The notes: generated by a model from the sequence alone, not told the origin. DNA of 64,000 nt from Candidatus Fraserbacteria bacterium (GCA_947085185.1 CAMTVK010000005.1:1-64000); one strand, 5' to 3'; counted from the first letter of the stretch, positions 33,390-46,243 are shown. Numbers and translations are program-made.

Positions 33390-34942
<1,553 letters not shown>

Positions 34943-35139: not shown

Positions 35140-35619
35140 TCATACGAGCTTTGCCAAAGCTGCCCTGATGGCCCCAAGGTCCGGCAGCTGCCGGGGGTCG
35201 TCGCTCACCCATTTGTACCGGACGGTACCGGTCTTGTCGAGTACGAAGACGCTGCGCTTGGCGACCCCCTTCAGCCCCATCAGATCTTCGTGCAGCACCC
35301 CATATGCCCGGCTGATCTCTCGATTAAAATCTGTCAAGAGCTCGAATTTCAGAGCGTTCGCCTTGATGAACGCATTGAGCACAAATGGGCTATCCACGCT
35401 GATCCCGTAGACGCGGGCCCTCAGAGAGTTCAACTGGCTCAGGCTATCACGAAACGCGCACATCTCGTTGGTGCAGATGGGACTGAACGCCAAAGGGAAG
35501 AACGCTAAGACCATATTCGCCTTCCCCAGCTCCTTGCTGAGTGTGAAGTCCTGGAACTGCTCGCCATTGCAGACTTTTGTCGTGAAGTCCGGGGCTTTTT
35601 GGTTGAGCTCTACGGCCAT
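35140..35619 (-). CDS. Peroxiredoxin (AhpE/BCP-like)
   Basis: APDFT, FFPLAFSPICTNEMC, GISVDS and RSVFVLD motifs. Confidence 0.9.
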   Translation of the reverse strand: MAVELNQKAPDFTTKVCNGEQFQDFTLSKELGKANMVLAFFPLAFSPICTNEMCAFRDSLSQLNSLRARVYGISVDSPFVLNAFIKANALKFELLTDFNREISRAYGVLHEDLMGLKGVAKRSVFVLDKTGTVRYKWVSDDPRQLPDLGAIRAALAKLV

Positions 35620-35755: not shown

Positions 35756-36550
35756 ATGACGGGCAAGAAGGTCGTGCGCATGATGGCGCTGGTTCTGCCA
35801 GCGATGGCGCTCTTGGCTGCGGGACCGATCTTGGTCAATCAATCACACAGCAGCGATTCTGTCTCGGCGAGCAGCGGCGAGCAACCGGGGAGACATCTGA
35901 CGCTCACCTTCACCAACGATACGGGCGTGGAAGCCGACGGATTGCAGATCGAGTTCAAGAAGGCCCCCGCGGGCATACAGTTTGTCAAAGTCGAGCCGTT
36001 CAAGAGCACCATGGCGGTGCTCAAGAGCAACGTTGTGGTGCTGACGAATGGGCGCGTCGGGCCAGGGGAGAAAGCGCGCCTGAGCGTGGTCGGCGATCCG
36101 TTTGGGATGGCTGTGGCGGACTTCCAATGGATTCGTCAAGGGGTGTTGATCGCCGGGAAGACTCGACAGATCGAGGTCGAGGAGCGCGTCATCACTCGTG
36201 AAACGGTCTTGGTCGATCGCACCGAGAAGGAGCCGGAGCCGTTGGTGGTGTCGGTGCGCTTTGAGCTTGTCAACGGGGCAAGCCGGCTCTTTGTGACTCA
36301 AGGGATGATGATCGCTGAAGGAGCGCTTCTTGCGATCAAAGATCAGGTTCGCTTAGAGTTGCTCATGAACGAGATCGCGCGCGCGAAGAATCTCAAAGAG
36401 CGCGAGAAGCTCCAAGCCGAGCTCAAGAAGCTCGAGGTGCGTGCACCGATCAGCGGGTTGGTGCGCGAGCTCTCTTTCGATGTCGGCGAAGAGACGACCA
36501 AAGTCGAAGCGAAGCTCCTAGTTGTCACCAGAGCGAACGCTTTACAGTGA
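35756..36550 (+). CDS. Exported hypothetical protein with a C-terminal barrel-sandwich (lipoyl/HlyD-like) hybrid segment
   Basis: Signal-like N-terminus after SD AAGGGGTG; LFVTQG..EGALL..helical hairpin..EVRAPISGLVREL. Confidence 0.6.
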   Translation: MTGKKVVRMMALVLPAMALLAAGPILVNQSHSSDSVSASSGEQPGRHLTLTFTNDTGVEADGLQIEFKKAPAGIQFVKVEPFKSTMAVLKSNVVVLTNGRVGPGEKARLSVVGDPFGMAVADFQWIRQGVLIAGKTRQIEVEERVITRETVLVDRTEKEPEPLVVSVRFELVNGASRLFVTQGMMIAEGALLAIKDQVRLELLMNEIARAKNLKEREKLQAELKKLEVRAPISGLVRELSFDVGEETTKVEAKLLVVTRANALQ

Positions 36551-36574
36551 AGCTGAAGCGACAGCTTACGGCAG

Positions 36575-36603
36575 GCCACGGGGTGCTCCCGTGGCTTTTT
36601 TGT
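36575..36603 (+). terminator. Intrinsic terminator
   Basis: GCCACGGG-gtgct-CCCGTGGC followed by TTTTTT. Confidence 0.85.
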
Positions 36604-36716: not shown

Positions 36717-38636
36717 ATGCACCAGAAGAACCAGCTCGCGTGGCTTATCGGGGGTGCACAGGGCAGCGGGGTTGATTCCGCGGCTAATCTTTTTGCCAAG
36801 GCCTGCGCCTTCGGGGGGCTCTACGTCTATGGCCAACGCGAATACTACAGCAATATCATGGGTGAGCACAGCTACTATCAAGTCACAGTCAGCGACCGCC
36901 CCGTGCGCGCGACTCGCTCGCTGACGGATATTTTAGTGAGTGCCGACGCGGAAACAGTCTTTCTCCATGCGCTCAGTGTCAAGCCCAACGGCGCTCTCAT
37001 CTACGACCCGAAGCTCACTGAGACGTCTCTCAGCAAAGTTGCCGCGCTAGAGCATCGGGCACGCCATGATCTCTATCAGTATCTTCGCGCGAAAAATCTC
37101 AGCGAGACGCTCGCAGGTATGCTCCAAGATGCGCAAGCCCGCGGGGTACGGCTCTATCCCGTTCCCTACGACGAACTCTTGCAGAAGATGACGGGGGAGA
37201 AAGTGCCCCAGCTGGCGCAGGCCAAGCGCATGGCCAACGCCATGGCTGTCGCGGCCTCGTGCGCCCTCCTTCGCTATGATATGAAGCTCTTGGAGCGCGC
37301 CCTGGAAGATATCTTTCACGGCAAGAAGAAAGTGATCGAGCTGAACTTGCGCGCGTGCGAGCTTGCGTATGAGTACGTCTCAAAGAATTTTGCGCAAGAT
37401 TTTCCCATCGTGCTGGAGCCGGTTCAAGCAAGCGCGCCGCGCATCTACGTGACGGGCAACCAAGCCACAGCGCTGGGAAAGCTCACAGCTGGCTGCACCA
37501 TGCAGACGTACTATCCCATCAGCCCTGCGACCGACGAGAGCGTCTATTTGGAAGCGCATCAGCTCTTCGAGCGTCAGGGCGGGCGCGGCGCGATCGTTGT
37601 CGTCCAGGTCGAAGACGAGATCGCAGCGATCACGATGGCGACCGGAGCGGCGCTCGCCGGAGCACGAGCCGCTACGAGCACCTCCGGGCCGGGGTTCTCG
37701 CTCATGGTCGAGGCGCTGGGCTGGGCCGGGATCAATGAGGTGCCCCTGGTCGTGACGCTCTATCAGCGCGGCAGCCCCAGCACAGGGCTCCCTACCCGCC
37801 ATGAGCAGGGCGATCTGAGATTTGTGCTCCATGCCGGCCACGGGGAGTTCCCGCGCATTGTGCTTGCTTCAGGAGATCTCGAAGAGTGCTTCTACGACGA
37901 GATCCGCGCGTTCAACTACGCCGAGAGATATCAGCTTCCTGTAATTCACTTGCTAGATAAAGCTCTCGCCAGCAGCAGCCAGACCCTTCCCGCCTTTGAG
38001 CCCCTGCGGGTACGCATCGATCGAGGGCTGATGCTCGAGAGCTCAGGGGGCGAGGGCTACAAGCGCTTCGTATACACGGAGACAGGGATCTCGCCGCGCG
38101 TGGCCTTGGGCACGCCCGCTGGAATCTTCTGGAACACCGGCGACGAACACGACGAGCTGGGGCACATCACCGAGGACCCCATCGAGCGCGTCCGGATGAT
38201 GGACAAGCGCGCCAAGAAATTAGAAGTCGCGGCTCGGGAGATCCCGCTCTCGGAGAAGCTCACGGTCTTTGGCGATCCCAGCTCTGAATTGTTGATACTC
38301 AGTTGGGGATCGCCCAAGGGGGCCATTCTCGATGCTCTTGAAGTCTTGCATGCCGAGAAGCAGTCGGTCTGTTTCGTGCAGTGTCGGCTGCTCTCTCCCC
38401 TGCCCAGCGATGAGCTGAGAGAATTGCTGAGCAAAGCCACGCGTCGCGTCTGTATAGAAAATAACTATTCAGGGCAGTTTGCCGGGCTGGTGCGCGAGAC
38501 TACCGGGGTCGCCATGGACCATCTGATCGTCAAATTCAATGGCCGTCCGATCACGATGGACGAAGTCTATCAGGCTGTGAAAGAGATTCTGTTGGGCAAA
38601 GCCCCACGAAGGATGGTGTTGACGCATGGCGCATAA
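36717..38636 (+). CDS. korA: 2-oxoacid:ferredoxin oxidoreductase alpha subunit (gamma-alpha fusion)
   Basis: [41 protein letters not shown] and ENN..GQ motifs. Confidence 0.92.
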
Positions 38637-40734
38637 GCCACAAGACTACAAGACAGACGTGCACAACAACTGGTGCCCAGGTTGTGTGCTGCCGGGCTCG
38701 CTTATTCACACGAACCCCAACGTTAAGCCTATCGAATCTATAAAGAAAGGCGATCGAGTGCTGGGATGGGATGGGCGCTATCATAGAGTGACGGAGGTCT
38801 TTAGCCACCGTCACCAAGGGATAATGTACAGAATTCGTGTGAAGTGCCTTGGGGAAGTCACGCTGACTCCAGAGCATCCTGTCTTGATTGCCAGACGCGC
38901 TTCCCCCAAGCGGCACACCCAGGACTTCACCCTCATCTGGGAACGAGCCGACCACATTCAGAAGGGGGACTATGTGGCGTATCCTATCCCTGCCGAAGTT
39001 GCTCCCTTGAAGGACTTCAAGCTTCCTGTGCGCAAGGCGCAGGATCGGCGCAGTGCGTCCCTGCCTGAGAGTATTCCCGTCACTCCTGAGTTTCTGCGAC
39101 TCGCGGGCTACTATCTGGCAGAAGGATGGATAGAGAGGCGCACGGCTAAGAAGGGCCGATTAGAAGCATCTATTTATTTCTCCTTCCCTCAGAGGGAGAG
39201 GAGATTCGTTCGCGATATAGAGCAAATCGTGGCTCGTGTCTTTGGTCTCAGTCTGTCTATTCAAGAGAAGCCCGAAAAGAGATCAATCGAGCTAGCGATT
39301 CACTCGGCGCGCTTGGCGAGAGCGTTCCAAGAGTGGTTCGGCAGCGGAGCCGATCAGAAGAAAATCCCCCATGAGCTGATGCTCTTGCCTCCGCCACAGC
39401 AGCGTGAGTTGCTCAGGGGGCTGTGGCGTGGCCATGGCTGGGTAAGCTCTCACCAAGTCCGGGCAAGCTATAAGACTATCTCAAAGACATTGCGAGAGCA
39501 GCTCAAGCTGTTACTCTTGCGCCAAGGGATTGTGCCCTCAGTCTACACCGAACCAGCTCGCAGGGGCCATCGCGAAGCCTATAGCCTCTTTGTCACGAGC
39601 GCCAGAGACTACGGGCGCTTGATGGAGGTATTGGGCGTAAAGCCCAAGAAACTGCCCACAGGCAACCCCCCCTCGACGGTGATCGGGCAGAACTTTGTGA
39701 TGGCTCCCGTAGCAGATATCGAGACCTTTGAGTACGATGGCCCAGTGTGGAACCTCGAAGTCGAAGATGTCCGTAGCTACGTGAGCGAGTGTGCCACTCT
39801 CCATAACTGTGGCGACTTTGGTATCCTCAACGCAGTGCAGATGGCTCTCGCTGAGTTAGATGTAGAACCCCATCGCGTCGTGGTCTTTTCGGGGATCGGC
39901 TGCTCGGGCAAGACCCCTCACTATATCAATACGTACGGGGTGCATACACTCCACGGGCGCGTCCTGCCCTATGCCGTGGGCGCTAAGTTAGCCAACCCCG
40001 ATCTGACGGTGATCGCCGTTGGCGGCGATGGCGACGGCTTAGGGATCGGCGCGGGACACTTCGTCAATGCCGGGCGCCGCAACGTTGATATCACTTATAT
40101 TCTGCACAATAACGGGGTCTACGGGCTGACTAAAGGCCAAGCCTCGCCCACGCTCAAGCTGGGCGTCCAAACAAAGTCACTCCCACAGCCCAATATCAAT
40201 CAGGGAGTCAACCCGCTCTTCTTAGCTTTGGCTGCAGGCTATACGTTTATCGCGCGCTCCTATGCGTACGATATTAAGCACTTGGTGAGCATCATTCAGC
40301 AAGCGATCGAGCATACTGGTTCAGCGTTCATTGACGTGCTGCAACCTTGTCCGACATATAATGACATCAACACGCGCGAGTGGTACGGCGGCGAAGACCG
40401 AAAAGACCCGCAGACGGGCAAGCCCCTCCCCCGGGTGTATAAGCTCGAAGAGCAGGGCTATGACCCGCTCATCAAGCCAGGGATGAGCGATGCCGAACTC
40501 GCTGAGAAGCTCAATAGATTTATCGAGAAAGCCCTCGAATGGGGTGACAGAATCCCTATCGGTGTTCTGCTGAAGAACGAGACGGTGCCCTCCTACGAAG
40601 ACCGGATCCTTCAAAGAATTCCATTCTATCGTGAGACACCGCCAGCAAAACAGCCGATTGCGGACGCCCAAGGCCGACCGACCATTGACTTGACAGAGTT
40701 TTTAGAAGAACTGAAAGTCACTGGGAACGTCTAG
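38626..40734 (+). CDS. korB: 2-oxoacid:ferredoxin oxidoreductase beta subunit precursor containing an intein (327-aa extein)
   Basis: WCPG|...|CGDFG, SGIGCS, HGR, GGDGD..NN (TPP-binding), [11 protein letters not shown] and QPC motifs. Confidence 0.92.
38683..39807 (+). mobile_element. Intein (375 aa) with a LAGLIDADG homing-endonuclease domain
   Basis: Block A C1-VLPGSLI, block [16 protein letters not shown] and LRGLWRGHG, block F VWNLEV..SY, block G LHN followed by +1 Cys. Confidence 0.95.
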
Positions 40735-46156: not shown

Positions 46157-46243
46157 GCCGAGGTGGCGGAACTGGCAGACGCGCGGGACTCAAAATCCCG
46201 TGGTGGCAACACCGTGTGGGTTCGACTCCCTCCCTCGGCACCA
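46157..46243 (+). tRNA. tRNA-Leu (anticodon CAA)
   Basis: GCCGAGG/CCTCGGC acceptor stem, CT-CAA-AA anticodon loop, long variable arm, GGTTCGACTCC T-arm, encoded CCA. Confidence 0.97.

Follow-up and report, generated by a model that had tools for sequence, protein, structure and literature searches.

An intein that interrupts the cluster-binding motif of an Fe-S enzyme may be a switch kept for the benefit of its host, or it may be a mobile element that has found a suitable cysteine. This question is raised by the β subunit of a 2-oxoacid:ferredoxin oxidoreductase (OFOR) encoded in a 64,000-nucleotide stretch of Candidatus Fraserbacteria DNA, referred to here as the window. Because an intein with Cys1 has inserted before the second cysteine of a CxxC motif, CPGC occurs both in the precursor and in the spliced product, and the original prediction, made from the window alone, took this arrangement for a possible oxygen or redox switch.

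Organization of the OFOR locus

The α subunit, a Sulfolobus-type two-subunit OFOR protein of 639 amino acids (positions 36717 to 38636, plus strand), contains POR and POR_N domains and scores 817 bits against the NCBIfam profile NF041170 (cut-off, 800). The start of the β-subunit precursor gene (38626 to 40734, plus strand; 702 amino acids in a single open frame) overlaps the end of the α gene, and a terminator-like hairpin lies ahead of the α gene at 36573 to 36597. The precursor scores 431 against NF041171, the NCBIfam profile of the archaeal-type OFOR β subunit (cut-off, 423), and contains the Pfam domains Intein_splicing, LAGLIDADG_3, TPP_enzyme_C, and PFO_beta_C. With both subunits above their NCBIfam cut-offs and four cysteines in β, the pair has the makeup of a Sulfolobus-type two-subunit OFOR. 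Among the matches listed, the closest named homologues of the precursor are Ca. Bipolaricaulia/Bipolaricaulota proteins.

The N-extein of 19 amino acids (38626 to 38682, plus strand) ends in W16-C17-P18-G19, and the C-extein of 308 amino acids (39808 to 40734, plus strand) begins with Cys+1, contains the TPP-binding GDG motif, and has further cysteines at 39901 and 40348. In silico excision of the insert yields a β subunit of 327 amino acids in which CPGC is restored and which has only four cysteines (17, 20, 51, and 200); we take Cys51 and Cys200 to be the remaining two cluster ligands. The nearest solved extein is the β subunit of StOFOR1/OFOR2 of Sulfolobus tokodaii (5b48 and 5b46), which has no intein. 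The C-extein aligns with it (5b48_B and 5b46_B; E value, 4e-109) from residue 15, so that Cys+1 falls on Cys15; Cys17 is the equivalent of StOFOR Cys12b, and Cys+1 is that of Cys15b. In agreement with the original assignment of the CxxC cysteines as [4Fe-4S] ligands, the CXGC loop of StOFOR β (Cys12 to Cys15) is reported to ligate the cluster and to be part of the modelled ferredoxin interface (PMC5020499). The same source describes StOFOR-type enzymes as occurring in aerobes and as relatively oxygen tolerant.

The 1.7-Mb host genome (G000) encodes three more OFOR β subunits, all without inteins, and a 2-oxoacid dehydrogenase E1. The host probably meets changing oxygen, since heme-copper oxidase subunit I (two COX1-family genes, C3:192700-194094 and C5:72669-73937) and an acetyl-CoA synthase domain (C1:91054-91518) are both encoded. 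Upstream of the α gene and divergent from the OFOR genes lies an AhpC/TSA peroxiredoxin gene identified with Pfam (35140 to 35619, minus strand). The intervening open reading frame of 263 amino acids (35759 to 36550), which has no Pfam or NCBIfam match, is 70 to 89% conserved in two genera of the family; it was not found at this position in family f3, whose peroxiredoxin and α genes face each other directly. The window also contains a tRNA gene (46157 to 46240) and a 16S rRNA gene (33392 to 34942, minus strand) preceded by a perfect sigma-70 consensus promoter (35095 to 35067). The rRNA genes look unlinked, because no 23S or 5S match is present in the 64-kb window.

Anatomy of the intein and its junctions

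The insert is a class 1 intein of 375 amino acids (residues 20 to 394; 38683 to 39807, plus strand) with Cys1, the sequence T-P-E-H as block B, a LAGLIDADG domain, block F, and a His-Asn end. The precursor reads HNNW-C17-P-G, then C20-VLPG...ATLHN394, and then C395-GDFG, the codon of C395 (Cys+1) being at 39808 to 39810 (plus strand). Cys1, the block B TxxH residues T81 and H84 (38866 to 38877, plus strand), Asn394, and Cys395 are invariant in all 63 aligned precursors. Cys17, that is, Cys-3 (38674 to 38676, plus strand), the equivalent of a cluster ligand, is likewise invariant in the precursor alignment and is kept in empty alleles. The Intein_splicing match (E value, 1.4e-8) reaches 35.1 bits, slightly below the Pfam cut-off of 35.8. 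An AlphaFold model of the precursor (mean pLDDT, 86.4; pTM, 0.58) matches StOFOR β 5b46_B (E value, 6.7e-35) and, in its Hint fold, the TliVMA intein 7qsu (E value, 8.2e-23) as well as 7qss; residues 13 to 18 have a pLDDT below 50, and the C17-C20 geometry is not readable from this low-confidence stretch.

The sequence and fold features of a class 1 intein were thus seen: an in-frame insert where orthologues are empty, Cys1, TxxH, a terminal His-Asn, Cys+1, and a Hint fold. The insert is not a chance feature, since congeneric genomes carry an empty allele at exactly the same point. From the motifs and a Hint dN/dS of 0.054, we infer that the intein splices with ligation of the exteins. The reading frame, the domains, and the empty orthologues bear out the original prediction of an intein of this length splitting WCPGCG of an OFOR β subunit, and translation together with in silico excision does the same for the double occurrence of CPGC and the Cys-3/Cys1 arrangement.

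TliVMA/PhoVMA (7qsu, 7qss, and 7qst), PI-PkoII (2cw7), and PI-SceI resemble the OFOR intein in their combination of Hint and LAGLIDADG domains, in Cys1, and in the His-Asn end, but they are only 16 to 18% identical to it and occupy another site in another host protein. Of 128 aligned inteins, 103 share the internal Cys55 (38845 to 38847) and 22 share Cys370 (39790 to 39792), and an internal disulfide is possible; in most mini-inteins, Cys1 is the sole cysteine.

Occurrence of full, mini-, and empty alleles

The precursor, used as the query, had 755 matches. Of the best 120, 113 were parsed automatically, the other 7 being truncated or not caught by the parser. All 113 have C-x-G followed by Cys1, and hence both Cys-3 and Cys1, as well as Cys+1; the junction reads CPG in 107 and CAG in 6. 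The junction pattern matched 86 loci in GTDB, 14 of which were chance matches and were dropped. The other 72 are OFOR-β intein junctions (64 of them complete) from Chloroflexota (mostly Limnocylindria), Nitrososphaerota, Bipolaricaulota/Fraserbacteria, and Micrarchaeota, an undercount because the pattern requires Ile-Leu after CGD[FY]G. The complete copies comprise 45 full inteins and 19 mini-inteins of eight lengths (155 to 179 amino acids), the latter showing that decay has happened repeatedly. Three loci titled Saccharimonadales (L039), Thermotogae (L055), and Acidimicrobiia (L063) nest within Chloroflexota or Bipolaricaulota, and the extein of L039 is identical to that of L072; as likely mislabelled or mixed bins, the three were left out of the count of host phyla.

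In the host genus, the orthologue was found in 13 of 14 genomes, filled in 9 (partly broken in G002) and empty in 4. Of 94 genomes of the Limnocylindria order, 63 gave a match, with 34 empty alleles, 27 starting at the intein junction, and 2 truncated; the 27 are made up of 8 full inteins, 16 mini-inteins, and 3 partial or unresolved cases. Two Limnocylindria genomes, G078 (empty) and G137 (mini), are unpublished, and the conclusion stands without both. Among Nitrososphaeria (151 genomes searched, 131 matched), 3 are filled, one of them the search center, which had been chosen as a carrier; an empty allele with CAG was matched in 5 of the 151. The intein is therefore fixed in none of the groups sampled, and the homologue search that the original prediction had proposed found both same-site inteins, at the 72 GTDB junctions, and intein-less alleles. 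The empty alleles L011, L146, and L158 read CPA-C, not CPG-C, whereas Gly occupies -1 in every one of the 64 complete filled alleles; CPA sites may resist homing or splicing.

In the mostly open-access literature searched, we found no description of an intein at the CPGC site of OFOR other than one possible entry. Novikova et al. (2016) tabulate a single PorB intein (COG1013, arCOG01601), that of Ca. Parvarchaeum acidiphilum (PMC4760082, Tables S6 and S2). It too lies in the β subunit of a pyruvate/2-oxoacid:ferredoxin oxidoreductase but is tabulated without site or sequence. Ferredoxin oxidoreductases are absent from the main text of the Anaeramoeba intein paper, as are inteins from the main text of the Ca. 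Nitrosotenuis uzonensis genome paper (PMC3835317).

Mobility of the intein and probable decay of its endonuclease

On an extein tree of 24 relatives, the filled or empty state changes six times, and at least four of these changes are forced by strong (starred) branches. G010 and G015 belong to different genera, yet their inteins differ by a dS of 0.17 and their exteins by one of 0.56, and they are 92 to 98% identical over about 140 codons just 3' of the site and 63 to 88% identical beyond; the pair records a recent homing event with co-conversion. In AU tests of groups chosen after the trees were seen, the grouping of G015 with G016 was rejected on the intein tree (P = 0.00125) and that of G010 with G015 on the extein tree (P = 0.00019). 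Monophyly of the Nitrososphaerota inteins was rejected too (P = 0.0066), while their exteins do group (support, 85). Patchy presence and transfer that does not follow the host gene, by which a homing intein is recognized, were thus both found. Purifying selection acts on the endonuclease of the family, which has a median dN/dS of 0.15 (41 of 45 pairs usable); the corresponding medians are 0.054 for the Hint domain (37 pairs) and 0.058 for the extein (45 pairs).

The host copy departs from its relatives in the endonuclease. Its first LAGLIDADG helix (block C, 39097 to 39129, plus strand) has an intact acidic residue, E147 of the intein, which is Glu in 122 of 128 aligned inteins. The second helix (block E, 39406 to 39441, plus strand) has His at the catalytic position (CAT, 39433 to 39435), where Asp stands in 121 of 128, and the host copy is the only one of the 128 with His. 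Blocks C and E are described as holding the catalytic acids of the LAGLIDADG endonuclease (PMC8966425), and because of this change in block E the host-copy enzyme is likely impaired. We infer homing by the endonuclease in the relatives and loss of nuclease activity in the host copy, which has likely entered the decay phase. An assembly error as the source of the His codon is not supported, since contigs of runs X1, X2, and X3 show the same letters there; the three runs come from one study, X1 may be the source of the assembly, and X5 does not reach the codon. An empty-allele joint was not among the joints listed in four runs, which is uninformative.

Domestication of the mini-inteins, that is, vertical retention after loss of the endonuclease, was rejected. 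They do not cluster on the Limnocylindria extein tree, for which 31 rows with empty, 18 with mini-, and 6 with full alleles were used (two CPA empties were omitted, and the long rows L059 and L094 are unreliable). The three states are dispersed over this tree, with 19 changes against a shuffled mean of 20.6, a count this low arising in 58 of 200 shuffles. In the host genus, 4 of 13 orthologues are empty. The homing-cycle model has inteins pass through invasion, decay, and loss, with full, degenerate, and mini stages (PMC8966425), and the pattern of the OFOR intein is that of such a cycle.

Related inteins and other inteins of the host

The nearest non-OFOR inteins, among the best 150 of 7,048 matches, sit in IscU/NifU scaffolds at GNPx-CGD, with CGD in common and Cys-3 absent. 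Ten such carriers were noted (P0126, P0127, P0131, P0135, P0137, P0139, P0140, P0143, P0144, and P0156), one cluster member among the IscU/NifU carriers is named from Elusimicrobia, and our literature search found no paper on IscU-site inteins. For the rows listed, and on a short Hint alignment, the OFOR-site inteins group apart from those of IscU (SH-aLRT, 93; branch not starred). Further relatives among the same 150 matches lie in SufB, ferredoxin, IspG, UDP-glucose dehydrogenase, NuoI-like proteins, and thioredoxin reductase. When junctions were readable (match from intein residue 1; 69 among the best 150), Cys-3 was present in 16, of which 7 are OFOR and 9 are other CxxC sites. The related clade therefore inserts before conserved cysteines, and Cys-3 is present where that cysteine ends a CxxC.

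The related inteins of P0227, P0255, P0261, and P0270 interrupt thioredoxin reductase-like proteins within the active-site CxxC (GVSYCA[V/T]-Cys1...HN-CD; Pfam Pyr_redox_2 in P0227 and P0255). There Cys-3 is presumably a member of a natural redox-active pair, which makes these sites stronger candidates for a redox trap than OFOR. Other relatives (P0130, P0148, P0259, P0152, P0245, and P0219, the last three named from motifs) are at cysteines of ferredoxin, IspG/GcpE, NuoI-like Fe-S subunits, and a radical-SAM-like motif. The host genome itself has five inteins besides that of OFOR, six in all, in proteins whose names were read from translations. SufB (1,238 amino acids; L117:545-4261, G000:C13) has two full inteins, WSGG-C...HN-S and YIEG-C...HN-C; the others are a DnaB mini-intein (C1:70706-71134) and those of ribonucleotide reductase (C21:116682-117818) and GyrA (C2:20274-21596), all in G000.

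A broad reading of this distribution would have the Cys+1 clade colonize Fe-S and thiol-redox cysteine motifs (those of OFOR β, IscU, SufB, ferredoxins, IspG, and thioredoxin reductase), and the OFOR CPG-Cys1 trap delay the maturation of a central carbon enzyme under oxidative stress in both bacteria and archaea, ammonia oxidizers among them. We regard this as doubtful.

Function of the CPG-Cys1 junction

As a selected switch, the intein would be kept for its benefit: under oxidative stress, a disulfide between C17 and Cys1 would store a cluster-less precursor, and reduction would free active OFOR. The two Cys-3/Cys1 precedents to which the original prediction appealed, engineered Ssp DnaE and Pyrococcus abyssi (Pab) MoaA, are indeed in print (PMC3922620, PMC10663303). 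The Pab MoaA intein, a natural case, has a cysteine three residues before Cys1 and an Fe-S enzyme as host, but that host belongs to COG1964, and the disulfide is shown for MoaA and only predicted for OFOR (PMC10663303, PMC3922620). The engineered CPG-Cys1 trap of the Ssp/Npu DnaE inteins has a four-residue junction identical to that of the OFOR intein, one found in 53 of its 64 complete copies; it was, however, built on another intein scaffold, and its trapping is reported from hyperoxic E. coli strains and not from a normal cytoplasm, whereas the CPG of OFOR comes from the cluster-binding loop of the host (PMC10772547). Cysteine oxidation is also reported to block splicing in Mycobacterium smegmatis DnaBi1 and in M. 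tuberculosis (Mtu) SufB, an Fe-S protein, effects with experimental support, whereas for OFOR such a block would be a prediction; the DnaBi1 disulfide lies inside the intein, and cysteine-based redox inhibition is described as not universal among inteins (PMC6195587). Mobility is compatible with a regulatory side, and the literature names both Pab MoaA and Mtu SufB as sensors. A switch would further suit the aerobic and oxygen-sensitive pathways of the host (COX1 and acetyl-CoA synthase), the conserved divergent peroxiredoxin beside the locus, the conservation of Cys55 noted above, and the persistence of endonuclease-free mini-inteins in 16 Limnocylindria genomes (one of them the unpublished G137). 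The frequency of related inteins in Fe-S and redox proteins is striking, and a redox benefit could explain it, but conserved cysteine motifs do explain it. Against selection for a switch stand the lack of fixation and the sites without inteins: Cys-3 is present in all 33 empty Limnocylindria alleles read, and CPG in 24 of these 33 versus 53 of 64 filled copies, so that filled alleles showed no excess of Pro at -2. Because empty alleles keep Cys-3, and mostly CPG too, the junction needs no intein-related selection. COX1 was found in 13 of the 14 filled genomes and in 10 of the 12 empty ones, although a weak fragment was the sole match in one of these 10; it does not separate the two states, and a link to oxygen lifestyle was rejected on these 26 genomes, which are kin and not independent, several being incomplete. 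The peroxiredoxin does lie two genes upstream of α, as the original prediction had it, but on the opposite strand, and in the 14 regions read it adjoins α in 5 of 6 filled (the contig ends in the sixth) and 5 of 8 empty cases; as support for a switch it was therefore rejected. The relative oxygen tolerance described for StOFOR-type enzymes (PMC5020499), the same junction in Ca. Nitrosotenuis uzonensis (P0052), which was grown aerobically (PMC3835317), and the bypasses offered by three intein-free OFOR β genes and E1 speak against it as well. With a patchy, homing intein, Cys-3 kept in empty alleles, and nearest non-OFOR relatives, in IscU, without Cys-3, the evolved oxygen or redox switch of the original prediction appears unlikely.

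Splicing might instead be held back or timed by metal supply and not by oxygen, with C17, Cys1, and Cys+1 binding Zn, Fe, or a nascent Fe-S cluster. The Hint fold would gather the three junction cysteines, related inteins occupy Fe-S ligand cysteines of IscU, ferredoxin, and IspG and are found in SufB, and zinc is reported to inhibit a DnaB intein (PMC7360933); given the low confidence of residues 13 to 18 in the predicted model and the patchy, mobile distribution, we consider such a gate very unlikely. Still harder to credit is a dead insertion, in which the intein no longer splices, the gene is inactive, and paralogues cover for it. The Asp-to-His change and the paralogous OFORs and E1 would allow this, but the change lies in the nuclease, outside the splicing domain, the frame is open, blocks A, B, F, and G are intact, and the median dN/dS values of Hint (0.054) and extein (0.058) are low.

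The probable explanation is a selfish homing class 1 intein in the CXGC motif of OFOR β whose trap geometry is incidental. Its LAGLIDADG endonuclease would spread it into the site before the second cysteine of CXGC. As the conserved blocks suggest, Cys1 would then attack the G19-C20 bond, the thioester would move to Cys+1, and Asn394 would cyclize; the joined β subunit, with CPGC restored, would bind TPP and the [4Fe-4S] cluster. Such a site is favored because an essential conserved motif ends in the cysteine that splicing needs, and because imprecise loss likely kills the enzyme; Cys-3 is present because it is a cluster ligand. The match to the engineered redox switch is thus likely a by-product of the insertion site. 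A C17-Cys1 disulfide under oxidizing conditions in vitro is plausible and would fit a selfish intein as a side effect: under strong oxidation it may pause splicing without being a selected switch. The host copy, with its Asp-to-His change in the second LAGLIDADG helix, would be in the decay phase of this cycle.

Implications

If splicing proves to have no redox effect, this would be an ordinary mobile intein. Because full, mini-, and empty alleles and CPG and CAG junctions coexist, the family offers a natural test set for deciding if Cys-3 traps have been selected as sensors or arise as by-products when inteins insert into CxxC motifs, and Ca. Nitrosotenuis uzonensis is an enriched, aerobically grown carrier. 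The OFOR intein is a widespread, little-described allele in central carbon metabolism, beyond the usual replication proteins.
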